A program made the translations under genes and the position numbers. The notes beneath the pieces are model-generated. The model saw only the letters and a program-made list of their open reading frames with translations. It was not told where the DNA came from and did no database searches. Positions 19,567-51,480 of a DNA stretch of 64,000 nt are shown piece after piece. Origin of the DNA: Mytilus edulis (taxonomy: Eukaryota); the NCBI RefSeq assembly GCF_963676685.1, contig NC_092354.1, positions 35,774,001-35,838,000 on the forward strand, read 5' to 3'. The first letter of the stretch is position 1, and each line of letters begins with the position of its first letter.

Positions 19567-19981
19567 GTAAGTTTATCCATATGTTTTTAAACAAAAATGC
19601 ACAGTATATATATTCCGTCGCTGGAAATTATTCATAAGTATGACAGTAACCAATTAAATGCCAAGGTCCCCGCTATGGACTTTTGAAGGTGAGTCCAGGG
19701 ACTTGTCATTTTTGGCCATGGTGAGTACAACAGCAAAAAGAATATTTTTATTGCAATATAATGTAATATTTTATCCTCCATGGCCTAACAGAGCAATGAA
19801 ATGACATTAAATCAGATTAATTTTTAAACTTTTGCTATAAATATATATTTTAATTTAACTGTGTTCAGTTTATACAAAATTTTACAATCTTGATGCATCT
19901 GTGGACTCACCAGTTTTGAAAATAGTGAGCCCAGACATATTTTGATGAGTCCAGGCCTTAGCGAGAACCCTGAAATGCCAC

Positions 19982-20169
19982 CGCCAGTTAAGATGAAACT
20001 ACACCAGGGCATTAAGTCATTACTTAACTGCAATTGAATGTTACTTGTTTAATACAGCTTTAGACTAACACATGTATACAATGATGTTTAGTTTACAATG
20101 GAGAGCGAAGAGAGAGAGAGCGAGCTAAAACATAGTTAACAGTTCCGGACAATAGAGCCTATTATGGCG
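19982..20169 (-). repeat. 3' LTR (188 bp)
   Basis: CGCCA...TGGCG ends; identical to 25479-25664 except for one extra AG unit. Confidence 0.95.
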
Positions 20170-20176
20170 TTACCAG

Positions 20177-20194
20177 TTTTTCTTTTCTTTCCTC
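20177..20194 (-). other. Polypurine tract
   Basis: Minus strand GAGGAAAGAAAAGAAAAA, separated from the LTR by CTGGTAA. Confidence 0.75.
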
Positions 20195-20442
20195 ATATAT
20201 TAAATTAAAGTTACTTTTAAATATAAGACTTTGCATAATTGTTACAAGAACAAACATATTAATTGTTGAAAAAAACACACTTTCATAGGGTAGACTGCCA
20301 TCAAGTGTTATCGTGGATTATTCTGCCCCACTTATACATAATAATAATCAAACAAATAATAGTTCAAATTTGCTATTCCAACGCAAATTGGTTTTGTGCT
20401 TATGGTCCACACTAGTTATATTAGTACACAATGATTTGTCTC

Positions 20443-23400
20443 TCACTGAGATAGAAAATAATTGTCTTGAAGAAATTTAGGAGGATGGCATTTCCGTGTG
20501 GATCGTCGAATTACATCGGTGTTTACTTGATCATCAGGGTCGTGTTGTAATTCATTTTCGCCTATTGGTAAGCTTAAGTCACTTGGTTCGTTTTCGAAAA
20601 GTTCCGGTTCTAACTCCTGTGAATGAGGAATGGATATTACATTCGGAATGTCAGTAGGTTTAGGCGGGCTTTGTGTTTTTACTGTATTATCGTCCTCGTC
20701 TGAAGATGTAGAATTGTCGTGACTATAAGTATCCTGTTGGCGTAAAGTGTTTAATAGTGACGGGACTTTATAACAATCACTCCTTTTTACACGGTATGAT
20801 GTATTGCGTAACTGAGAACCAACAAATTTTCTTATGTTGCACCAAGAATTGTCTGTAGAAACAACTAGGTATCGGTCACGAGCACAAGTTTTGTTTCGGT
20901 CGTTATATAAGTAAACTAGATCACCAACTTCTAAATGCGGAGTTTCGGGTAGGGCTCCAGAGGGAGCTTTAGGAATTTCGCTGTAACTGTGGTTCGACTT
21001 TCGTAACTCATGTTGACGCTGAATAAGATTCTGATCTGTCAAAGGTATTTGGTTGTTTGAGAATTGATCACGTTGAGTCCACATTTCTCTTGCGGATAAC
21101 CCACGGTTACGAATGCGAGAATTTAAACGGGCAATAGCCAGAGTGAGTGACAGGGGTGATATACATCGTGTATTCGGGTCTTGTCGCAAAATTTCGTCTT
21201 CTAACTCTTGAATTGCCTTGTCGGCTACAGGGTTTTTGTTTTTGTTTTTGAAACGACCAACTTCTATGGTAATTCTATGTCGGCGCAAAAGTTCATCGTT
21301 GACCAGGGCTTGGAATCCTGGTGCAGGGTCGGTACGAACAACGGCAAATGGTCCATCGAGTGGACATAGTTCAACACAAAGACACAATAAAGACTCACGT
21401 AAAGTTTCTTGGCGCTCGTCTGTGATCAAGCGAGCGGCTGTGTATGACGTAACATATTCACGCACAACTAGGATAAGCTGTCGTTCACGCTTCATCACAT
21501 CTGCAGCAAATGCAGACCCTATTGTCTCTGGTGGGTCACCTGTAGATTGTACATTTAACTTGTGAGGAATTTTTTGAAGAGCGGCACATTGATGACATCC
21601 ATTACTGACAGTTTCAATTGCTTTATCCATATCAAGTGCGAAGAAGTAACGGTGTACGACAGATTTAAGTTGATAGGTTGAAGGATGGTCGAGTTTAATG
21701 TGTAACGATGTAAGTAGTCCGTCTAAAACCTGACGAGGAACAACAATACATTCACGTGTTGGAGCCATCGGCTCGTTTCTCTTGACAACGAGTAAACCGT
21801 CTTTAGCAATACACGCATTGTTTAGATAGCGTTTTATGTCCTTTACATTAGTAAGTTTTTTTGACGGTCGGGTCCCTTGGCGCAAGTGAGCATGTGTACG
21901 CCGTAAGTCCGAGCATTCTGTTTGGATTGATATCCAGGCGTTCCTGCTTGTAAACGGAAGTTTTTGAATCCCTTCAAGAATGTCTTTTGTTGAGATATGT
22001 CTAACAACTGAATTTTCAGTAAATTGCACAAATGTACAGATTTGACAGGCTGAATCCTCACAGTCTGGTGCATTGCGACTTGCAAAATCGGACGGAAGTA
22101 TAGCAGCTCCTGCTACATGTCTTACTGTTACTTGATATCTACAGGCTGTTGAAAGAAATGTCGAAACACGTGGGCTTGCTGAAAATTCTCCCCTACACAG
22201 CTTCTCGAATGCCTGAACACAGGGTTTACTATCGGTCAATATGCACGTGTTATGTTTTGATTGTATGATATACGGACTAAAGTGCTTAATAGCTGAGGCA
22301 ATAGACAGTGCTTCGATTTCACAAGGCAGCCACGTTAATTGGCGTTTTCGCAGTTTTGCACTAAAAAATCCGGAAACATGTATTTTATCATCACGTGTTA
22401 TGTAAAGGGTAGCGCCTAAGCCATGTTTTTTCACAGAACCATCGGTAACTATCCATAGTTGATCATTTGGTTGAGGTAAAAATATTGAACGATTTGTTGA
22501 AAGAGCTTTCTGTGCCTGCGAGAATATATCAGTAAGTTCGTCCGACCATTTTATAGTTTCTTTAGATTCTCGACCGGCTACCATATCATCAAGTTTACCT
22601 AGTAATGAAGCGCAATCTGGTATTACTCGTGCGAGTACTTTATACGCTCCAATAAAAGACCGTAAACCACATACTTTGTCTGGTTGTGGACAAACTGATA
22701 ATGTAGAAATACGATGCGGGTTGGCTTTGATAGTTCCTAATTGCCAAATCCATCCAAGAATAGTTGTAGTTTTGGGTGCGATAATCGTTTTAGAAGCAGA
22801 CAAATTTAGACTGTTCTTTTGCAGAGCCTGTAGAACCCTTGTCCAGTTTTGTAGTAATTCGAGTTGGGTATTTCCACCGCAATAAAGATCATCAGCTATT
22901 TTAGCTACAACACCTTCTTCTACCAGATCACCTAAAACACGACACATTAGCTCCTCAAGTGCTGTTTCTGAGCCTGGCATGCCCATTGCAGAGCGCACAT
23001 ACACACGCACACCTTTAAAGGGGGTTACTACACCACAGTATTTCATTGAATCACTCGAAAGTGGAATTTGGTAGAACGATTTAGTAAGGTATGTTGCTAT
23101 TATGTATTTCCACTGTGCTATTTGACGTAAGGTTGAATCAACATCTGGCATGAGTGACGGTTGGGGTTTGCTATATCGGCCTACGTCTGCAAATGCGGTA
23201 ACTAAACGGAAACTGCCATTTGGTTTCTTAACTAAAAATGACGGGTTAACATATTCTACAGATACGCCAATATCTTCTGGGCGTTTGAAAACACCAATTG
23301 CTTCAAGTTCATCAAATTTTTGTTGAAGTTCTACTAGTTGATTACGGGAATATTGCGGCACACGGCCTTTGCGTTGCGGTGGTTGGACTGGTCCCATGTT

Positions 23401-24171
23401 CACTCTAGCTTGAAATGGACCGGCGGCACCATTGTATCCCTTGAAATATGGGTCGAAAACATCATCAAAGTCTTTGACCGTATCCCTGAATTTTACTTTT
23501 AACTCTTGAGATAACAAATTATCTGGGTCAATTTTTACTGATTCTGAATGATTTGTCAATCTTGGGTGATTTATTTTATCAATGTTCTCAGTTGATTCGA
23601 CGGCATCACTTATACACTCTGGAACATATGTTGATCGTATTTGACAAAAGTGTTCGTTGCGTCTTAAACTATGGGGTTCCTGTGTCAAATTTGGAATACG
23701 AATTCTGCCGGCAACGCTTGTAATCAAATTTGGCGGGGGCCACACGTTTGAATCCTTTCCAGCATGCATTGATGAAACATGCGACTCTAATCTTGGTTCA
23801 ATGGCGAATGTATCATCAGTTGAGCAAATATCAGATGGTAATTGCATTTCAAGAAAATCACCAGGCCAAATAGTTGTAAATTGAGCCGGAGCACGTAAAA
23901 CGTGTGCCCGACGGACTGTATGATGTTCGGACGTGTTTTGAACGGAGCCATAAGTATAAACGGTATTGTTACCCAGTATTACTTGACGTTTAGCGGGACG
24001 GATAGAAATGTCATTTTTTTCCATAAAAGGAATACCAGCCAAGATGTCTACATCCAAAGTTTCGACGACTAAACCCTCAAAATGTAGTTCACGTCCATCA
24101 CGTGTGAAATTAGTGTGCACTTCCCCAATGACTTTGAGGGGTGAAGATCCATCGGCCTGATGTGCAGATTG
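20443..24171 (-). CDS. pol: Pol: protease C-terminal part, reverse transcriptase, RNase H, integrase
   Basis: ILAG protease motif; RT MGMPGS and IADDL; RNase H TDGS, EIEAL and TDSKP; integrase H-x4-H...CHQC, FAAD and RTD. Same frame as gag, separated by a single TAA. Confidence 0.9.
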
Positions 24172-25314
24172 TTAGCTAGACTTTATTTCAATACCCATTC
24201 GTTTAGCTGCGGAAGCACGTAACATATTGCCGGTCGCACCACTATCAATAGTTAAACGCGTGTTATAATGTGTATGGAACACGTCAAGATACGGATACTG
24301 GCGGACTTGGACTCGGTTTACTGAATGCATAGGTTTAGAAACATTGTCGACTTCTACGTCTGACAATTCGTCATCTGAATTATCTAATATTCCGGCAATT
24401 TGTCGGGCTTTAACCATGTATTTTCGGTCGCTGTTCGGTAAGAAAGAGCACTTGCTGAGGAAGTGGCGGTCGGGTCTGCCTGTTGCTTTACACAACGGAC
24501 AACTTTTAATAGAGCGTGGATAAGATAATTTGAGTTTTTCTTCATGAACAAACTTGGATTTTGCAGGAAAGTTAGAAGTAGCTGCTCGCATAACTTTTGC
24601 ATCCTCAGAATTACGGAGTTCCTCAAGTAATGAGTCAAGCGCTTGCGAAACTTCCGGTTTTATTGACGACAATGTTCGCGATCTCAATTCTGTTCCATAT
24701 CTTTGTTTGACCAATTTCGGTAGGTCTGTATGTATTAGTCTTAACCATGTTAGAACGACAAAGTTTTCAAGTGACGGTGTCATTTCTTCATCTTCCTCGA
24801 TTGCGCCCCCGTGATGCGTTATTTGGGTATCGCGACGGAGCAGGTTGTCTTCCACAAAAGCCATTATTCGTTGATAAAGGTCTTCTGGACGTTCGTTCGG
24901 TTCAAAATGTATTGCTGCAAAGTCTATAAAATGAGCACCCGTTGATTGGAATCCATAATGTAAACGGATGGTTTGCCATATATTTTCAATAGAAGTAGAA
25001 TTTTTTACTATTGTGTTTCTAGATATAACTGGGCAATAATTGGCTATTTGACCAAGCATTAATTCTAACATGCTGACTTTTTGTTCACGTGTACGCCTAT
25101 TTGCTTCGGCTACATCTTCACCATCATTCAAAAAGCCACGGTTGGGACCAAACCTAGTTTTCTTTTGCCATTGTACGTTGTCTCCTAAGAATGGTGCAAA
25201 ATGTGGGTCTAATGATAACGTGTATATTATGTTTTGTCTCCAGTTTTCAAATGAGTTTACAGTTTCAATTTTAGTAAGACACCACTGTTTAGGTGCTCTG
25301 TGAGTATTAGCCAT
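24172..25314 (-). CDS. gag: Gag plus protease N-terminal part (DSG active site)
   Basis: 380 aa; CPLC...H...C knuckle and TIDSGATG. Ends at an in-frame TAA inside the protease. Confidence 0.9.
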
Positions 25315-25467
25315 TGTGTTAAATGCTTTTGCTTATTTATAATGCAGTTTAAGTTTCACGGTAAATATTTATTTACGGATGACCTAGACAGGTTTTAGTC
25401 AGTCCCGATGTTCGTCTCAACAATATGATGAATAATAAACCTTTCTTGTAGGCGTAAATTCGAATCA

Positions 25468-25478
25468 CGCTGCCACCA
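25468..25478 (-). other. Primer-binding site complementary to the tRNA-Leu 3' end
   Basis: Minus strand TGGTGGCAGCG abuts the 5' LTR. Gapped similarity extends to TTCGAATC (tRNA T-loop). Confidence 0.8.
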
Positions 25479-25664
25479 CGCCAGTTAAGATGAAACTACA
25501 CCAGGGCATTAAGTCATTACTTAACTGCAATTGAATGTTACTTGTTTAATACAGCTTTAGACTAACACATGTATACAATGATGTTTAGTTTACAATGGAG
25601 AGCGAAGAGAGAGAGCGAGCTAAAACATAGTTAACAGTTCCGGACAATAGAGCCTATTATGGCG
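25479..25664 (-). repeat. 5' LTR (186 bp)
   Basis: Direct repeat of 19982-20169. Confidence 0.95.
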
Positions 25665-26264
25665 CACTTTTAATGGCTGTATTGTCAGGTTAAAAAGGAA
25701 TTCATGGATAAATAACCGCTGCATTGGTGTTACATAATTGTGCAGACATATAATTAAAACAATGACAAAGAAATGACTTGTTTAATGAATAGGGTTAATA
25801 AACTGATGCACATCAACTGTTGAGTTGTTGAATGTTAAATCCGTGTCTTGTGTCCGGAATTTCTGGTTTATATGTATCGATCATACACAATCTGGTATAT
25901 TTCATGTGAAGTTGAGTCACAGGCATGTGTTCAGTTTTCCCTGACAGTTTTTTAAAGCTGCACTGGCATAATTACATACAAATAAAACATAACAGATAGC
26001 AAATATTGACAGTTCCTGTACATCAGAGTTAGTTTTTGGATATAAAGATAACACGATTATGTAACTACTTAATATTGACTACTTATGCATGTGGAAATTT
26101 TTGGGTTTTATCAGTCAACGTCAAATTTACAATTGAATATCCCACAGTCACACGTAAAAATACATCAAATATTTAATAGTATTCAGTCATAGAATCCGAG
26201 CAAGAAAAAGAACATGAAATTTTTAAGTTGAAACCTTCATCCGGTACTATCTAAACAAAAATTA

Positions 26265-38389: not shown

Positions 38390-39030
38390 AGGGTGAGTTT
38401 AAAAGCAGATTTCGCTTCGAAAATTACCTTTTGCAGGAAAATTTTAGATATAGACATTATTTAACAAAATTCCGTATCAGTGCACACGATTTAGAGATTG
38501 AGAGGGGAAGGTACAAAAATCTGACAGTGTCAGAACGTATCTGTAAATTGTGTGGTACTGAGGTTTAGGATGAAATTCATTTTCTTCTTCAGTGCCACAA
38601 ACTTTCAAATATTCGTTTCAACTTTTTAAATGAAATAAAACAACTGTTTAAAAATTTTAGTGGTTTAGATATTAAATCACAGTTTATTTGGCTAATGTCC
38701 TCTGAAGATACTTTCATACTCCAGAAACTAGGAGAATTATTGGAAAATTTATCCTCATATAGGAAAGTTTCCTTAAATAATATATAGATACAGAAATGCC
38801 CAGTGACCCCCCCCCCCCCCCCTTATATTATTAAACACTGTGCTTGTTGTATTCTTGTACTTGTCTTTATAAATATTTTTTGGTTTTGTTTTGTTTTTTT
38901 TTCTTTTCTTTTTATAACATTGTGTCTTAATCATATTGAATCACTTGTAATCATGTGTATGTAATTAATGTTGATTGTTCTGCTCCTTGTGGGCGCTTTG
39001 ATTAGCAATAACATATTTGAATTTGAATTT
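38390..39030 (+). mobile_element. 5'-truncated LINE 3' end (RTE-X-like)
   Basis: LTKFRISAHDLEIERGRY...ERICKLC...DEIHFLLQC zinc finger and a (TTTGAA)n tail. Confidence 0.75.
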
Positions 39031-39517
39031 ATTAGTGCGTACATGAACATGAAACTAGACCAAGTAAGTGCAAAGATTGGTCGACCACTATTAATTTTCA
39101 AAAAAAATTGTTCACAAGATCAGCCTGTTATTAGTGTAGTGAATTGTGCACAAGTACTGGTATGTTGATGTCCTCAATCTAAACTTCCGAAGGTTGACTG
39201 GGGAATTGGAAGTACAGTCACTCAAATCTTTTCCAATTATGCGAAGAATGAGAAATTAAGTATACCCCATATAGAGATAAGATGACATAACAAGGACTAT
39301 TTCGTACACTGTCACTCATATCCCATCTTTCATCTATAAAGTAAATATAATCATTGTTTTCACATCCTCAAAAATTTTGCAAATAGAGTTAATAGATGTT
39401 TAGTGATATTTGTAAGAACAAACTCCATATCAAAATAGATGGCAGCACTACTAAACGACAAGGTCAGAGAAACACTAAGAACACGGAAACTGCAGTTACA
39501 TTACAAGTGTATATAAT

Positions 39518-40385
39518 TGTAACAGGAGGGTCGGGCTTGGATTCTTCCGTCCCCTCTAGTTAGTTGTTTATGTCGTGTTAATAACTTGAGATATCTGACT
39601 CTATACACCAAATATACTGATATATATATATAATGTGTTGACGAGTGAGATCATTGGACTATCTCTGTTCTTATAGTTCTTCTCAGGGAACTGAGCTATG
39701 GCAATAAGAAAAAAATAAACATGATGTAAAGCAACAAAAACATTATACAATATCAACAAGTGTAAAATTGTCTAAAAGGTAAATTAATTTCAACAGTTTA
39801 TAAGTTTAACAATAGTAAAATAATATTCTGAGTAGTATAACAATTATATTTCAAGATAAATTGAGTATTCGAGTGGACCTAAAGTTTTTTAACCCGTTTT
39901 TTGTTTTGACCTATTATTTATAACTTTTGGTTTATATTTAGAACTGTATTAAATACTTTAATTTAGTCTAATTGTTAAAGACTGTAAAAGAACACGCTGT
40001 GGTACTATTAAGGAAAGGACTTTCAAAATTATAGAATTAACTTTTCTACATCTTAGGTCTATTACCTAGACATACCTAGTGTCAGTAATAAATGAATACT
40101 GTATAATTGTGAGCCTTATATTAGCTACTGGTCTGAAGACAAACCAATATTTGAACTTAGATGATATGTATAAATTGATTATTTACGATACTAAGGTTAC
40201 ATGTAATTTTTCCTTCAAAAATATTTATTTTTACTCGGAATTTTTCCAAGATTTATAAAAAGTGATAACTTATAAAGATCATATATTATAACTTTAATTT
40301 ACTTAACAATATTAAACTTATAACAAAATAATTAAATAAGCACAAGGGAGATAATTAATCTTTATCTTATAGCGACATTGTTACA
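39518..40385 (-). repeat. Putative 3' LTR (868 bp) of a second LTR retrotransposon
   Basis: TGTAACA...TGTTACA inverted termini, with a G7A polypurine tract (40386-40393, minus) directly adjacent. Partner LTR not seen. Confidence 0.65.
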
Positions 40386-40667
40386 TCCCCCCCTAAGAAT
40401 CAATTTATATGAAAAATATACATTATTATTGACTAACATATATATCTAATTTTCAACAATTTAGCTAATATTTAAACATCTGAAATTTAATAGTTGCATG
40501 TAATTAACAACTTCCCTTATATCTATATATTTGTTTTTTATAAAGTCCAAATCAATTGCAAAATAACCAAAACAATAACAGTCCTAAATGACTTTCACCA
40601 TCCGGGTTTCTTTTTTAACTGCAATACCTGCCCTTCCTTCATATTCGGCATCTGGAAATCATATGCT

Positions 40668-41137
40668 TCATGGTCTCTGGGAACGATTACAGCTCCATGT
40701 AACATTCGGAAATAATTCCTTCTTATTCATTTGCTCACTAAGAATGCGTCTTTCCTTCTTAGCTGCTTCTCTTGCTTGTACGTTTACCTTTGGTCTTATA
40801 ACTCGTTTGATTATCTTGCCGGGGTCAATATAATTCATATTATCTACCAGCTGAGGGATGGTGTTCATCACTTCTTCTGTGCGGTCTTTAATACTAAGCT
40901 TATGATGGTCCCTCAAATGCTGAAGAAGGTAACATCTTCTTCCTAACTTCCTCTGACAGAGACGGCATATAATTATTGAGGTTGTCTTGGCATGAAAACG
41001 GAGCCAGTGTTTACAATACATTCCTAACCTCTTGATAACAGGGTTTTTTACACCCCTTTACCTCACAGGACAATCATTCATCCGGCCAATACTCCCTCGG
41101 AAGGTATAACAAATTTGGCTACTGACTTTTCAGACAT
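40668..41137 (-). pseudogene. Double C2H2 zinc-finger accessory ORF, copy 2 (stop plus frameshifts in the 5' part)
   Basis: SCEVKGC...YCKHWLRFH...ICRLC...LLQHLRDHH...NMNYIDPG; ATG preceded by TTTTACCTTTTTCAG. Confidence 0.6.
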
Positions 41138-41167
41138 GCTGAAAAAGGTAAAATACAATATTAAACA

Positions 41168-41524
41168 TTATAAAAATTTCGTTCTATGAAGTTTTCCCTT
41201 AGGATTTATAAATCTCTTATTAGTACAAGAAATAGAGTAAACTGTTGCAGTACGTTCTGCCGCAATATCTTTCTCTAAAAGGTGGCTCGTTCTATAATGT
41301 CGGCCTAGTTCACATCTGTATTTAAATTTTCTGTTGCACATAGTACATTTATACATAGGAATATTTTCTAAATGTACAAGTTTCCAATGTTTTATGTAAC
41401 GTGAGTAGTTCCGGGAAAATACGGTATTACACCCGGTTACATCACAATGCATGCCATTTTGTGGAAATGTTTCTCTCAAATCATCATCTAGACGAAGTAT
41501 TTCTCTATCTTCCATAATTATCAT
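41168..41524 (-). CDS. Double C2H2 zinc-finger accessory ORF, copy 1
   Basis: HCDVTGC...YIKHWKLVH...YKCTMC...F...LGRHYRTSH...NKRFINPKG. Confidence 0.7.
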   Translation of the reverse strand: MIIMEDREILRLDDDLRETFPQNGMHCDVTGCNTVFSRNYSRYIKHWKLVHLENIPMYKCTMCNRKFKYRCELGRHYRTSHLLEKDIAAERTATVYSISCTNKRFINPKGKLHRTKFL

Positions 41525-44167
41525 TGACGTCTGCTTCAGCCATTATGAAGTATTTATAAATATCACAAAAATGAGTTTTTAGATAATGATGAAATAACTA
41601 GTATGAAGAGACACTTTTATAAAAGATACATGAAAGATAAAGAATGATTTAGTACACAACATCATCCTTTTTATCCTGAAATTTTGGCAACTTCAACTTC
41701 CAATTTTTTTAAATCTTGAAAGTCCTCCAAATCATGTATTATTTTCAAGGCAGCTAACATATACATTGAGCACATAATTTTCTTTAAAAAACATCTTTTG
41801 ACAAGAAATTTCAGTAAATATGATGCCATACTATAATAATCTAAAAAGGTGTTTGGAAAAATAATGAAAAACAGTTCAATACCTTGATAATAGGGCGACA
41901 GAGGACGGTCGACATCGAAATTTTCTGGTACTAAGTGGCAAGTTTTGGAGTATAAAGAATTATGTATAAGAAAACGATTTATAAAGCGGCACCCTCATCC
42001 AATGAGTGGAAATGCTTTAAATTAAATGAATTCTTAACGTGTTTACTTTCTTTTCTATTTCTCTCCGCCTCCTTAGTACCCAATATCCGGTCGCGATGAT
42101 ACAGAGTGATAATATAATGTATCTAATCATATGATTGTTAGAAATATTGTTTTTGCATTGTGTGTGATAATAACAAATATGTATTGTTTCTCACAGATTG
42201 TGCCCTCTCGAAAACATATTTTACTCTTAAGTATTATTTTTTTTTGTAGGTCATGAATAAATATTTTGCTTATATTTTACTTTTATAGATTGGAATGTGG
42301 AAGAGAAGATTTTGCATATATATGATACACTTCACAAAACCAGAGAAACTGAGACAAAATGTATTGTGTATGTAGAAATAAAGATTGATGATATTCTGAG
42401 ATACTCTGAAGGAGGTCGTGAATGCTTGAACAGTTAACCACAAAATAAGTGTTATCTTTGCTAACTATATGGTGTTCATGGTCTTGAACAATATATAAAC
42501 ATAACTTCGAAAGGGTAGCAGATTGCTCCACATGTGACACCCGTCGTGCTGCGCAGTTATGTTAAAACACACCCAGTAATAAGTCTTAATTGGTAAGTAA
42601 TTCTGGGGGATTCATAATTTATCAATCGAAAATGAAAAAAATCTTCTACCTTCAGGTATCATTACTTGATTTCCTTATATTTTCAAAGCACATTTAATGA
42701 AAAAAATAGTGGGTTGAACCTTGTTTAATGGCTAACCAAACCTCAAGCTTTGTGACGATGTTAAACAATATCGCTGAAATGAGAACACTGCGTGACAGAA
42801 ATGAGGAACAGACACACTCATCACAGAGAATTGCACAAACAAATAATATAAAGTCGACACAACATACGAAGTGTAGCTAAACCCTTAAGCAGATAATAAA
42901 ATAAAAGCCGCCAAACATCCAAAAGAATGGAAAACAAGTCATATTCCTGATTGGTACAGGCAAATGTTTGGTGTCAATAAGGGCAAGCAGAATGTACTAA
43001 GTGAATATTTGAAGATTCGAAATACATATTGAGTTAAATTTCTTAATGACATATATTTTAACCAAATATATGTATTTAACGATCAAAATATGATTGCACT
43101 ATAACCTGCCATCCATTATGCTTTAATACGTTCAACTAGGTTGGTTGATCTGGGGAATATCGTTTTATAAGAAATCTCTTATGGAACTTCATGATTTTAT
43201 ATCGACTCGAAAATGAATCTTTAGCAGATGCATCAAAATATGTTTTTTTGTTATGATTATGGCGATCCTATTATAGTACGTAACCTGGGACATTCAGGGT
43301 GATTTTTATACGACCGCAAATTTTGAAAAAATTTTCGTCGTATATTGCTATAACGTTGGCGTCTGCGTCGTCGTCGTCGTCGTCGTCCGGCGTCCGAATA
43401 CTTTTAGTTTTCGCACTCTAACTTTAGTAAAAGTGAATAGAAATCTATGAAATTTTAACACAAGGTTTATGACCATAAAAGGAAGGTTGGTATTGATTTT
43501 GGGAGTTTTGGTCCCAACATTTTAGGAATAAGGGGCCAAAAAGGGCCCAAATAAGCATTTTCTTGGTTTTCGCACCATAACTTTAGTTTAAGTTAATAGA
43601 AATCTATGAAATTTTGACACAAGGTTTATGACCACAAAAGAAAGATTGGGATTGATTTTGGGAGTTTTGGTTTCAATAGTTTAGGAATAAGGGGCCAATA
43701 AAGGGCCCAAATAAGCATTTTTCTTGGTTTTTGCACAATAACCTTAGGTTAAGTAAATGGAAATCTATGAAATTTAAACACAATGTTTATGACCACAAAA
43801 GGAAGGTTGGTATTTATTTTGGGAGTTTAGGACCCAACAGATTAGGAATTAGGGGCCAAAAAGGGACCCAAATAAGCATTTTTCTTGGTTTTCGCACTAT
43901 AATGTTAGTATAAGTAAATACAAATCTATGAAATTTAAACACAAGGCTTATGACCATAAAAGGAAGGTTGGTATTGATTTTAGGAGTTTTGGTCCCAACA
44001 GTTTAGGAAAAAAGGGGCCCAAAATTGAATAATTGGGGTTCTTTGATATGCCGAATCTAACTGTATATGTAGATTCTCAACTTTTGGTCCCGTTTTCAAA
44101 TTGGTCTACATTAAGGTCCAAAGGGTCCAAAATTATTGGCCCCTTATTCCTAACTATTTTGATATGA

Positions 44168-47808: not shown

Positions 47809-50800
47809 TTATATTTTATAATAAATTCCAATTTCTTTTAAAAAAGCAACAATATTTGTAAATGAAACATTATTAAATAAATCATACATATTATTGACAT
47901 TGAAATGCTTCTTACGAATATCAGCAAAGTCAATACAATTAATTAAAACATGTTTAATAGTATACTTGCAGTTGCAAGGAACACATTGTGGTTCATCTTC
48001 ATTTTTTAAAAGATACTCGTGTGTTATTTTAGTATGACCAATACGACATCTAGTAATAACACACTGATCTTTTCTGCACATAATATTATCAAAAGGTTTG
48101 CCTAAATTAGGTTTAATTTCATGCAATTTATTATCGTCTTTTTTACTCCATTTATTTTTCAATATATTAAAAACATATTCTCTAATATTAGATTTAAAAT
48201 CAGTATATGGTATATCACAGTTAGATAGAGGGTCACCCAGGGCATTCTTTGCCTCAAGGTCTACAGCTGTGTTTCCAAGGATTCCAACATGACTCGGAAC
48301 CCATAGAAATATTATTTCTTTCAGAAGAATTTTTAAATTCCTCATTACATATAAAATTTTCAGGATTGTTGGGTTTTTAATTTTAGTATTTCGTATAGCT
48401 TGTAAGCATGAAAGTGAATCCGAACATATAATAAATTTGGATTTATCTGAAGAAGCAATAAATTTCAAAGCCAAAATTATTGCTTCTGCTTCAGCAGTAA
48501 AGATGGATGCATCAGATGGCAAACGGAGGGTTGCAGCTCTGTCCCTGAAGACAGCAGCAGATGCAACTCTATCACCATCTTTTGATCCATCAGTATAGAC
48601 AGTTGAAAAATCGAGATAATCGGCTTTAATTTCAGCATAGTGTTGCTGAATTAAAAGAGGATTTGTTTTATTTTTATTGTGTTCACGGAGATCAAATATC
48701 ATTTTTGGTTTGGGAAGTTCCCATGGAGGACATTTGCAAGTTTGAACTTGAGCAACAGATTTTAAATCAAAAGAAGCTAAATGTGGTTTTAAACGTAAAC
48801 CTAACGGAGGAATTTTATGTTCATGTTTTGCAAAAATATCTTCATAAATCGGATTAAAAACACAGCTGTAGGCAGGATTATCTGAATGGGCTTTTAGTTT
48901 GACAGCATATTGAAGTCCAAGCTTCAAACGTCTGTCAGTGAGTGAGTGCTCATCAGCCTCTACATACAGACTCTCAACTGGTGAGGTTTTAAATGCGCCA
49001 AGACAGAGACGCAAACCTTGGTGATGCACAGCATCGAGAATCTGTATGTAGGACTTCCTTGCAGAGCCATACACTATAGAGCCATAATCTAGTTTAGATC
49101 TAACAAGAGATCTATATAAATTGAGTAAAATGTTGCGATCAGCACCCCAGTCAGTGCTGCCGACAACTTTTAAAATATCTAAAGCTTTTAAACATCTCGC
49201 TTTTAACATTTTGATATGGGGTAGAAAGGTTAACTTTTTATCGAAAATTAACCCAAGAAATTTGGTTTCATCAACCATTTTAATTGGGTTGCCGTACAAA
49301 GTTAGTTCTGGATCAAGATGCAATTTTCTTTTGTTACAAAAATGCATCCCGACCGTTTTTGAAGTGGAAAATTTAAAACCATTTTCCGAGGCCCATTTTT
49401 CAATTCTTCCAAGACATAATTGTAATTGTCTTTCAATGTTATTCATATTTTTGCCTCTGTAACATATTAAAAAATCATCAACGTACAATGAACCTTCAAT
49501 ATTACTTTTTAAAACTTCAACAAGGCTGTTGATTTTAAGACTAAATAATGTAACAGATAAAATACTGCCCTGAGGGACACCCATCTCTTGATCATAAAGA
49601 TCAGACATGGTCGAATTAACTCTAACATTAAATTGTCTGTTAGAGAGAAAATTAGAAATAAAATTAGGCATATTGCCTTTCAACCCCATATCAAATAGAT
49701 CTTTTAAAATACCATATTTCCATGCAGTATCATAGGCCTTCTCAAGGTCGAAAAAGACCGACACCACATGCTCATTTTTCGCAAAACCATTACGGACAAA
49801 TGATTCGAATCGAACAAGATGATCAAGAGTACTGCGACCCTGTCGGAATCCACACTGAATATTGGCTAATAGCCCATTGGATTCCAGGAACCAAACAAGG
49901 CGATCATTGACCATCCGTTCGAGTGTTTTACAGACACAACTGGTAAGAGCAATTGGTCGATAATTAATAGGATCCGTATGATCTTTACTTGGTTTTGGAA
50001 TAGGCACGACGGTTGCAAGCTTCCAGATTGATGGTAAATCACCAGATTCCCAGATGTTATTCATGAGCTGCAAGAGAGCTTCTAGCGAGGAATCTGGCAA
50101 GTGTTTTAAGAGTTGGTAGTGAATATTATCAGGCCCACAAGCTGTATCATGGGCTTTTGACAGAGATGTTTTAAGTTCTTCAAGAGAAAATAGTTTATTA
50201 TAATTTTCACCATTTTTTGATTTAAAGTTTAATTTAATTTTTTCCTTTTGTTTTTTAACTTTTTTAAAGTCTTCCCTGTAGTTGTTACAAGAAGAAGACT
50301 TTGCAAAAGTTTCACCAAGTTTGTTGGCAATATCCTTTTCAGATGTTAATAAATTATTGCCGTCTTTCAAATGTTTTACAGTGGCTTTAGAATTTTTACC
50401 TTTTATTTTATTTACCATATTCCAAACTTTTGTCATCGGAGTGCGAGATGTAATCCCCGAGACAAATTTTTTCCAGGATGTTCGTCGGGCTTGCCTACAA
50501 GTCCGCCGTGCCTTAGCGCGAAAAATACGGAAATTACTCAAGTTTTCCGTCGTTGGTTGTTGATTGAACCGTCTTTCAGATTTTTTACGGTCACCTATGG
50601 CTTGATCACATGCGTCATCAAACCATGGTTTACTGGGATGTTTTGGATTTGCCGAGGTCTTAGGAATAGTTCTGTCAGCAATTGACGTTAGAACTGTATT
50701 AAAAGTTAAAATTGGATCTTGCACAGTCTCAAACATCTTTGACTGAAGTTCCGTTCGACAGAGATTCTCAAACAAGGACCAGTCCGCCTTGTCAAGTTTC

Positions 50801-51480
50801 CAACGTGGTACTCTCTGTTGGGCAGAATTAAAAAAATGTTCAAGTACTATTGGAAAGTGATCACTTCCACATAGATCATCATGAACACGCCATGAATAAT
50901 CCAGGAGCAGAGAGGGATCGCATATAGTGATATCAATAGAAGAATAAGACCCGTTTCCAGGATGAAGATACGTATTAGATCCATCATTAAAAATGCATAA
51001 TCCTTCTTGAGAGACAAAGTCCTCAATGATCTTACCTTTGGCATTATGAGTCTTGCTACCCCATAATTGATTGTGGGCATTGAAGTCGCCCATAAGTATA
51101 AATGGTGAGGGTAATTGATCAGTGAGGTTTTTGAGTTTTGCTTTATCGATAATTGAATTAGGTGGAATATATATCGAACATAATGTAATTGTTTTGTCTA
51201 ATGATAAACGAATTGCAACTGCTTGCAGATCCGTTGTGAGTTGGACTGTGCTATGAATGACGTTGTCCTTCACAAAAATGGATGATCCGCCTGCAGCACG
51301 TTCATCTACCTTAGAAAATGTGCTATACATGTTGTATCCTTTTAAAGATACGTTGTCACTTTCTTTTAGATGAGTTTCTTGAAGACAAAATGCAATAAGT
51401 AAAAAAGACTGAACTAGAAGTGTTAACTCGAGAAGATTTATTTTAAGACCTCGGCAATTCCATTGGATTATATTTGTCAT
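47809..51480 (-). CDS. LINE ORF2: AP endonuclease, reverse transcriptase, RNase H and CCHC finger (1223 aa, intact)
   Basis: QWNCRG, LQET, GDFNAH, SDHFP; YRPIAL, DLEKAYD, GVPQG, YVDD; YTDGS, AEAEAI, SDSLS, GNTAVD; CVPC...H....C. Confidence 0.97.
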   Translation of the reverse strand: MTNIIQWNCRGLKINLLELTLLVQSFLLIAFCLQETHLKESDNVSLKGYNMYSTFSKVDERAAGGSSIFVKDNVIHSTVQLTTDLQAVAIRLSLDKTITLCSIYIPPNSIIDKAKLKNLTDQLPSPFILMGDFNAHNQLWGSKTHNAKGKIIEDFVSQEGLCIFNDGSNTYLHPGNGSYSSIDITICDPSLLLDYSWRVHDDLCGSDHFPIVLEHFFNSAQQRVPRWKLDKADWSLFENLCRTELQSKMFETVQDPILTFNTVLTSIADRTIPKTSANPKHPSKPWFDDACDQAIGDRKKSERRFNQQPTTENLSNFRIFRAKARRTCRQARRTSWKKFVSGITSRTPMTKVWNMVNKIKGKNSKATVKHLKDGNNLLTSEKDIANKLGETFAKSSSCNNYREDFKKVKKQKEKIKLNFKSKNGENYNKLFSLEELKTSLSKAHDTACGPDNIHYQLLKHLPDSSLEALLQLMNNIWESGDLPSIWKLATVVPIPKPSKDHTDPINYRPIALTSCVCKTLERMVNDRLVWFLESNGLLANIQCGFRQGRSTLDHLVRFESFVRNGFAKNEHVVSVFFDLEKAYDTAWKYGILKDLFDMGLKGNMPNFISNFLSNRQFNVRVNSTMSDLYDQEMGVPQGSILSVTLFSLKINSLVEVLKSNIEGSLYVDDFLICYRGKNMNNIERQLQLCLGRIEKWASENGFKFSTSKTVGMHFCNKRKLHLDPELTLYGNPIKMVDETKFLGLIFDKKLTFLPHIKMLKARCLKALDILKVVGSTDWGADRNILLNLYRSLVRSKLDYGSIVYGSARKSYIQILDAVHHQGLRLCLGAFKTSPVESLYVEADEHSLTDRRLKLGLQYAVKLKAHSDNPAYSCVFNPIYEDIFAKHEHKIPPLGLRLKPHLASFDLKSVAQVQTCKCPPWELPKPKMIFDLREHNKNKTNPLLIQQHYAEIKADYLDFSTVYTDGSKDGDRVASAAVFRDRAATLRLPSDASIFTAEAEAIILALKFIASSDKSKFIICSDSLSCLQAIRNTKIKNPTILKILYVMRNLKILLKEIIFLWVPSHVGILGNTAVDLEAKNALGDPLSNCDIPYTDFKSNIREYVFNILKNKWSKKDDNKLHEIKPNLGKPFDNIMCRKDQCVITRCRIGHTKITHEYLLKNEDEPQCVPCNCKYTIKHVLINCIDFADIRKKHFNVNNMYDLFNNVSFTNIVAFLKEIGIYYKI

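Follow-up and report, generated by a model that had tools for sequence, protein, structure and literature searches.

Which genes lie next to the LTR remnant in this 64-kb window (the whole 64,000-nucleotide stretch of mussel DNA analysed here), and do they belong to the element? An earlier note had read the region as an LTR element end carrying a cassette of several small accessory ORFs, two of them encoding paralogous double-C2H2 zinc-finger (ZnF) proteins, with a splice acceptor for each ORF. We found that the window copy is a dead 3' fragment in which both ZnF ORFs are broken (Table 1). Because the third ORF of the cassette, 52 aa long, proved to be noise, the cassette reduces to the two paralogous ZnF genes, and it is these that complete relatives carry downstream of pol.

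Results

The window copy

The reading of 39518-40385 as a repeated LTR was borne out by its termini, by the polypurine tract directly upstream, and by 28 further matching places genome-wide, one of which is a full-length solo LTR (88%) with a 4-bp target duplication. TG...CA ends with an adjacent polypurine tract, as in Ty3/Gypsy elements, are found at 39518-40394, and the last 19 bases of the LTR are common to that of a complete element, L063. As had been noted, pol is absent from the window, and a second LTR was likewise not found within the 64 kb. Among the copies fetched from the subfamily to which the window copy belongs, none was linked to pol. Since the window copy and the examined subfamily copies lack pol, the assignment to Ty3/Gypsy was made through homology of the LTR end and of both ZnF genes. 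No Rfam match was found in 39000-43500.

Table 1. Features of the locus (window coordinates).
Feature	Position	Strand	Remarks
3' LTR, decayed Gypsy family	39518..40385	-	868 bp, TGTAACA...TGTTACA
Polypurine tract AGGGGGGGA	40386..40394	-	abuts LTR
ZnF-B gene, decayed	40595..41137	-	ATG 41137; frame breaks near 41094, 41049, 40703
Predicted splice acceptor (polypyrimidine tract + CAG)	41139..41153	-	one base before ZnF-B ATG
ZnF-A gene	41168..41543	-	natural start 41543; frame broken near 41528; residual 118-aa ORF 41524-41168
Element homology boundary	~41548		unrelated dispersed repeats beyond
Unrelated dispersed repeats	41549..41784		contain remainder of 52-aa ORF
52-aa ORF	41671..41829	-	chance frame across unrelated repeats, outside element
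High-copy dispersed repeat	41777..42127		contains 52-aa ORF start and supposed acceptor

Both ZnF ORFs have the shared motifs first described for them, C-x4-C...HW-x3-H, C-x2-C...H-x4-H and N-x2-F/Y-x2-P; no Pfam family above cut-off covered the last, closing motif in the window proteins. The A type consists of the double-C2H2 module alone, without a tail, while the B type adds a C-terminal helix and hairpin. The 118-aa ORF does hold the fingers but is not an intact gene: comparison with a 95%-identical copy (L060) revealed its natural start, the frame break and the loss of its acceptor. The second paralogue is decayed, as had been proposed, and an open 182-aa copy of its subfamily was found (L076). 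Only one of the three acceptors named earlier, the strong polypyrimidine-CAG before ZnF-B, is real in the window copy, because that of ZnF-A is lost and the supposed acceptor of the 52-aa ORF belongs to a dispersed repeat.

The 52-aa ORF had been counted as a gene of the element. Its start lies inside a high-copy repeat and its remainder in other repeats (40 places scored of 205 candidates for 41784-41549). In the single repeat copy inspected, GTG stands at the position of its ATG, and no second genomic copy of the peptide was found. On these grounds we rejected it as an accessory or fusogen-like gene.

A third gene in complete relatives

It had been set beforehand that ZnF ORFs should lie after pol and ahead of the 3' LTR in other copies, and they do so in complete homologous Gypsy elements, with the order LTR-gag-pol-ZnF(-ZnF)-LTR, identical LTRs and 4-bp target duplications. 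Complete elements with ZnF ORFs after pol include L063 (LTRs of 1102 bp with 0 mismatches, target duplication CAAC), L061 (TACT), L064, L079, L082, L084, L085, L088 and L089. Gag, a pol ordered PR-RT-RH-IN, a PBS and a target duplication, all absent from the window copy, are present in L061, L063 and others.

The gene is much more widespread than the earlier note supposed. Among 40 loci of this genome picked on integrase alone, 34 have a C2H2 ORF, either downstream of pol or as a fusion with it. Six lack one (L136, L138, L166, L151, L172 and L174); three of these (L136, L138, L166) are broken off or deleted relative to sister copies that have the finger ORF, and in L172/L174, which form one family, it was not seen. 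The third-gene proteins, from many lineages, are 120-580 aa long, with tandem C2H2 fingers right after the acceptor, sometimes duplicated.

These ZnF genes are under purifying selection. The proposed check for dN/dS below 1 gave that result in 19/19 ZnF pairs, which are not independent, with values mostly of 0.07-0.28 and P<0.05 in 15; for A-type genes, significance was reached in only one of four pairs. The Cys and His residues, spaced C-x2-4-C...H-x3-5-H as in classical C2H2 transcription factors, are invariant in a 60-sequence alignment with identities to the reference of 21-48%. The A/B duplication is old, and both paralogues have been kept in three families.

Splicing

A YAG lies within 15 nt of the ATG in 9/9 family ZnF ORFs, seven of them with at least 8 of 12 pyrimidines. 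In the integrase-picked families an acceptor precedes the ATG in 21/22 (19 strong) versus 255/2500 window ATGs, a count that is inflated because start codons were chosen partly by their acceptor. Support from RNA for splicing of the ZnF gene is thin. The spliced reads expected to run from the 5' LTR to each acceptor did not appear: in 8 runs there was no LTR or leader joint to either acceptor. One contig from X3, a run guessed to be RNA, joins at the exact base after the acceptor AG, and its 85-nt upstream piece is foreign and lies outside the element. Among the runs that the search listed as containing the sequence, none was on record as RNA. In X21 (373 reads) and X24 (4 reads), raw RNA reads were sparse, lay on both strands and contained no splice joint. 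Of five leaders, one has a GT donor near gag, and no conserved donor was found. Skips inside the LTR in X3 and X7 were rejected as splicing; their ends are not GT-AG, and they resemble other LTR families with the common terminus.

Fold, fingers and tails

The ZnF protein model (mean pLDDT 89) has two fingers. The structures closest to it are those of C2H2 finger proteins, most of which bind DNA, and all scores are weak (Foldseek best E 0.025; VIA best Z 5.6). Fold searches of PDB and BFVD gave nothing at or below E 0.001, which does not imply a new fold, and the ESM Atlas returned only unnamed or generic C2H2 clusters. For an A-type protein, the single-sequence model reached only pLDDT 43. The recognition-helix residues are suggestive of a DNA reader. 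Arg stands at -1 of the finger-2 helix in 17/29 element proteins versus 3/69 host repeat copies, and the combination of Arg at -1 with Asp/Glu at +3 occurs in 11/29 element proteins, more rarely in small homologues (4/54). L061-B, for example, reads RRCELTRH against RSDELTRH in EGR1. In place of a TGEKP-type sequence, the fingers are joined by linkers such as LENIPMYK and IPVVPIYQ.

Tails vary across families and may be acidic or Ser/Thr/Pro-rich, RS, coiled or BTB. BTB_2 tails (L150, L155) and H3-like peptides are features of clades other than the window's. In the clade of L163/L167/L170 and its homologues, the N-termini match 4-6 of 9 residues of the genome's H3 tail, in register. Matches of at least 4 occurred in only 2/887 ORFs of the sampled DNA, which equals the number of clade members counted there; the peptide had no PDB match by phmmer.

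Discussion

What might the third gene do? We consider it likely that in the relatives it regulates the element, by turning it on or by protecting it from silencing by the host. For the more specific proposal, that the ZnF protein would bind DNA and regulate the LTR or the chromatin of its own element, we put the chances at about even; it draws on position, conservation, purifying selection, the acceptor before the ATG, the predicted two-finger fold and the A/B duplication in three families. An mRNA spliced to the acceptor would yield the ZnF protein, whose fingers would recognise a short stretch of DNA. Host chromatin factors would then be recruited or decoyed by the variable tail (acidic or Ser/Thr/Pro-rich, coiled or BTB, with the H3-like N-terminal peptide in other clades), and the tail-less A paralogue may modulate or partner the B protein. 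A search for a target motif common to the LTRs of 6 families yielded just the terminus plus, in 4 of them, a weak AGnGTGTTCT, and CpG enrichment or a common CpG-rich motif was absent (CpG o/e 0.49-1.16).

A broader version of the regulator reading is possible, if doubtful. A large branch of animal Gypsy elements would be "complex", with an ancestral spliced C2H2 chromatin regulator that mirrors host ZnF silencers; its fingers would read the LTR, and exchangeable tails (acting as H3-tail decoy, BTB adaptor or acidic domain) would defeat silencing. Molluscan hosts would have repeatedly retaken the module as multi-repeat proteins. Molluscan host proteins do hold up to 21 repeats of the double-finger module, and these repeats need at least two origins (98-column alignment). 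The ZnF genes of the elements may be a source of zinc-finger proteins in the host, and a set of mussel gene models labelled "uncharacterized C2H2" is explained as element genes.

Because the element carries splice acceptors, it could instead need an RNA-export factor, and the ZnF protein might, like Rev or CERV, bind unspliced element RNA and export it from the nucleus. C2H2 fingers are able to bind RNA, most tails are basic or helical, and one family, L155, has an RS-rich stretch. The slot and the predicted spliced design are also those of CERV from the C. elegans element Cer1 (PMC10309623). However, CERV, with its C4 loop and G-like domain, was not seen to resemble the ZnF protein in sequence or fold, the recognition helices look like those of DNA readers, and the BTB and H3-like parts point to chromatin, so that we regard export as rather unlikely.

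A somewhat smaller chance attaches to an integration tether, in which the ZnF protein would bind DNA or chromatin together with integrase, in the manner of the chromodomain of chromoviruses. One clade (L154, L156/L159 and L169; support 99/96) has its finger pair fused in frame to the integrase C-terminus, with no acceptor before the internal Met. Loss of the pol stop could, however, be enough to account for this fusion, and in most families the fingers form a separate ORF behind its own acceptor. The target duplications seen (ATAT, ATAC, CTAC, CATG, CATA, CAAC, TACT and TATG) show no strict site.

It is less probable again that the protein binds LTRs to hold copy number down, as a self-limiting repressor or as a factor against competitors. 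The BTB-plus-finger architecture of some elements resembles that of host repressors. The sisters L085 and L089, moreover, are least alike in the ZnF ORF (82-87% versus 93-99% in the flanks), as expected under conflict. Yet a positive need more easily explains why the gene has persisted in most lineages under strong purifying selection, and tails that are acidic or rich in Ser/Thr/Pro are rather a mark of activators.

Functionless captured host fragments or an env-like entry gene, which the multi-copy module proteins of molluscs and the env position of the slot might suggest, are barely credible: low dN/dS, invariant Cys/His and the retention of both paralogues in three families exclude a neutral passenger, and the proteins are small and basic, with no evident membrane segment on inspection, no env family match in Pfam scans and a predicted soluble two-finger fold rather than an errantivirus-type membrane glycoprotein ORF3.

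Comparison with known systems

The usual picture of an env-less animal Gypsy element shows gag and pol alone. In this one genome, most sampled Gypsy families carry a third, selected, transcription-factor-like gene, and our literature search found no description of such a ZnF gene in Gypsy elements. It provides a candidate, open to direct test, for the way in which LTR elements in animals turn themselves on or resist silencing. The regulator that we favour would have functional counterparts in foamy virus Tas, HTLV Tax and HIV Tat, which are encoded by small spliced genes near the 3' LTR and act on their own LTR. The small gene near the 3' LTR and its predicted splicing are alike in the mussel elements, which differ in lacking env; none of the three viral factors is known to be a tandem C2H2 protein.

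Among Ty3/Gypsy elements, the product of the 3' ORF of Cer1, CERV, is described as a Caenorhabditis-specific protein of 517 aa that is joined to an N-terminal half, contains a C4 loop and acts in RNA export (PMC10309623). The mussel proteins, in contrast, vary in length, start right after the acceptor, span many lineages and have a C2H2 pair where CERV has its C4 cysteine loop along with H, M and G domains. Plant Tat/Ogre/Retand elements also have extra 3' ORFs beside gag-pol, with no assigned role (PMC2774666, PMC6431247; see also PMC11963269), and the sections consulted in the first two describe no C2H2 pair. Chromoviruses bear a chromodomain at the integrase C-terminus (PMC2774666), where the mussel fusion clade has its finger pair; there is no chromodomain in the pol of L061 or L063, and the fingers are mostly a separate ORF.

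At the level of the protein, the finger fold is common to the mussel ZnF and to Tramtrack (2DRP), EGR1/Zif268 and Kaiso, with weak scores only, and the finger-2 helix of L061-B equals that of EGR1 at positions -1, 3, 4, 5 and 6. The mussel module is set apart from these two-finger DNA-binding domains by its non-canonical linker, its HW-x3-H first finger and its N-x2-F/Y-x2-P closing motif.

The Window Copy and Its Genes

Judged from its sequence and its relatives, the window fragment is a marker for an accessory gene that is real, under selection and widespread in mussel Gypsy elements. Close protein hits bear Mytilus names, which makes the host a mussel. The window copy itself is a dead fragment. 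As the earlier note had proposed, its end is a repeated LTR: 28 further genomic sites match it, and one of them is a solo LTR, 88% identical, with TATG flanking both sides. Two related frames with double C2H2 zinc fingers (ZnF genes A and B) lie upstream of this LTR; both are present and related as claimed, but gene A is damaged as well as gene B. Element homology stops at ~41548, with unrelated high-copy repeats beyond, and the window holds neither a second LTR nor the pol of the ZnF element, the latter absence having been remarked before. A 52-aa ORF previously counted in the accessory cassette proved to be noise and was rejected as an element gene, since it sits wholly inside these foreign repeats, its peptide is single copy in the genome, and the repeat copy inspected has GTG in place of its ATG.

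Features in the window and third ORFs at two other genome loci
Feature	Position	Strand	Remarks
Gene A	true start 41543	minus	out of frame near 41528; acceptor lost (compared with the 95%-identical copy L060)
Gene B	41137-40595	minus	frame breaks near 41094, 41049 and 40703
LTR, TGTAACA...TGTTACA	40385-39518	minus	purine tract AGGGGGGGA directly ahead
LINE-type endonuclease-RT ORF	47809-51480	minus	intact, 1223 aa
Other full-length gag-pol LTR element	~19975-25665	minus	ORFs of 386 and 1242 aa
KCTD-type BTB_2 joined to C2H2 fingers, third ORF	L150:3056-4423		E 1e-7
KCTD-type BTB_2 joined to C2H2 fingers, third ORF	L155:3518-4567		E 3e-14; also an RS-rich stretch

Complete Elements

A genome search with the 118-aa peptide, a remnant of gene A, gave 50 matches. 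For 36 places, 10 kb of surrounding sequence was examined: 15 had a related pol upstream on the same strand, two had an LTR on either side of the ZnF but no pol, and the remainder were fragments. Complete elements such as L061 (duplication TACT) and L063 (identical LTRs of 1102 bp, duplication CAAC) have the order LTR-PBS-gag-pol(PR-RT-RH-IN)-ZnF-PPT-LTR, which bears out the anticipated position of the ZnF ORF, behind pol and ahead of the 3' LTR. Two ZnF genes, as in the window, occur in L061/L065 and L063/L064, and one in elements of the L079, L085/L089, L115 and L078 types. In a module tree of 99 rows and 98 columns, with bootstrap incompletely settled, the A types (finger module without a tail) form one clade (99/87) and the B types (module plus C-terminal helix and hairpin) another (97/84) within a joint clade (96/84), so the A/B duplication is older than the three families. 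Because no copy of the window's subfamily among those fetched had pol, the window is assigned to Gypsy elements by homology of both genes and of the LTR end. L078 and L080 are young, internally deleted elements lacking pol (LTRs 99.7-99.9% identical) in which the ZnF ORF survives, still open in L078 but truncated in L080; their pol-bearing relative appears to be L136. One contig (~6% of the genome) holds 28 of the 50 matches as well as nearly all decayed window-subfamily copies, and may be a transposon graveyard or reflect search bias.

Selection and Possible Exchange

In the dN/dS check suggested earlier, every one of the 19 ZnF pairs, which share members, came out below 1 (range 0.07-0.73; P<0.05 in 15). 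Window gene A against L060 gave 0.73, non-significant, as expected of young dead copies. Across 60 sequences, 20-51% identical to the first, the Cys/His ligands are invariant or nearly so. Despite low dN/dS, the ZnF gene was the most diverged segment between sister elements in the three pairs compared: synonymous divergence was 0.88 in ZnF versus 0.08-0.10 in pol (L085 and L089), 0.60 versus 0.01 (L063 and L070) and 0.21 versus 0.07 (L079 and L082), which suggests that cassettes have been exchanged between subfamilies.

Spread among Gypsy Elements and Beyond

Forty new loci were selected by integrase similarity alone: 14 close (50-65% to L061) and 26 distant (37-44%), the latter hand-picked from 105 for long open frames. 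A C2H2 ORF followed pol or was fused to it at 12 close and 22 distant loci, with six misses. The window-type module, W-P...C-x4-C...HW-x3-H...C-x2-C...H-x4-H...N-x2-F/Y-x2-P, marks a single integrase clade (100/99); other clades have different finger pairs, and behind these come tails that are acidic or rich in Ser/Thr/Pro, an RS stretch or BTB_2. The third ORFs of one clade match the genome's own H3 tail at 4-6 of 9 N-terminal residues, with L163, L167, L170, P0195, P0201, P0202 and P0205 starting M-[APV]-[NK]-T-K-x-T-[PA]-R in register with it. The window's other gag-pol element (short LTRs with 137 nt identical, non-canonical ends CGCCA...TGGCG) is very distant, with pol just 20% identical to L061 and no third ORF.

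Among the best 150 hits of a profile search over 1.8 billion cluster representatives were dozens of single-module proteins of 120-260 aa (4 of 20 looked up bore a mollusc name: two Mytilus, Mizuhopecten and Argopecten) and giant proteins (P0011-P0031) with 4-21 module repeats. Those giants that carry a species name come from Sinanodonta woodiana or Gigantopelta aegis; in Gigantopelta a G-patch domain is also present. The giants' repeats require at least two origins in the module tree and are placed among element-type rows, suggesting that these proteins may be domesticated.

Splice Acceptors and RNA

The claim that each gene has its own splice acceptor fails for gene A in the window copy but is supported by sequence signals across the family: in 9 of 9 family ORFs a YAG stands no more than 15 nt from the ATG (seven with a strong pyrimidine tract) versus 1 of 72 spacer ATGs. 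In integrase-picked families a predicted acceptor was present in 21 of 22 (19 strong), a count somewhat inflated by starts partly chosen on the acceptor, versus 255 of 2500 window ATGs. RNA evidence for splicing is thin. The predicted spliced reads from the 5' LTR did not appear in eight runs mapped on L063, where raw RNA reads were sparse. A contig from run X3, presumed to be RNA, spans gene B and the LTR, leaves the element exactly one base past the acceptor AG and continues for 85 letters absent from the element; this is what would be expected if a foreign exon had been joined to the acceptor. In run X5, a contig crosses the A-B spacer unspliced, and a GT donor near gag was found in only one of five leaders.

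Possible Roles and Known Systems

Fingers, variable effector tails, an LTR-adjacent slot and signs of exchange together fit best a protein that would regulate the element's own DNA or chromatin, a role to which we give about an even chance. In the predicted B-type model (pLDDT 89), extra strands link the two fingers, and a long helix and a hairpin follow; its structural neighbours, all weak matches, are C2H2 proteins that mostly bind DNA. RNA export is unlikely, its appeal being by analogy to CERV, the 3' ORF product of the C. elegans element Cer1; according to PMC10309623, most such 3' ORFs are without known function. An integration tether, suggested by a clade whose two fingers share the reading frame of the integrase C-terminus (L154, L156, L159, L169), seems rather improbable, and self-repression would be quite surprising.

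The full-text literature searched, which leaves out Repbase Reports and subscription journals that may already annotate such ORFs, gave no account of animal Gypsy elements with a C2H2 third ORF. The main text of a mollusc LTR survey (PMC6238403) contains neither "zinc" nor "ORF", the text seen of PMC10294476 lacks "zinc", and the passages of PMC6431247 mention no C2H2 pair. Portions of other sources note extra genes in Tat-clade and fungal elements (PMC2774666) and a zinc-finger double domain in SnRV-like retroviruses of frogs (PMC4131045). Of 29 element proteins, 17 have Arg at -1 of the finger-2 helix, paired in 11 with Asp/Glu at +3; host repeats differ, with Arg at -1 in 3 of 69, and the pair is less frequent in small unplaced homologues (4 of 54). 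The same pair is present in EGR1, whose helix RSDELTRH compares with RRCELTRH in the B protein of L061.
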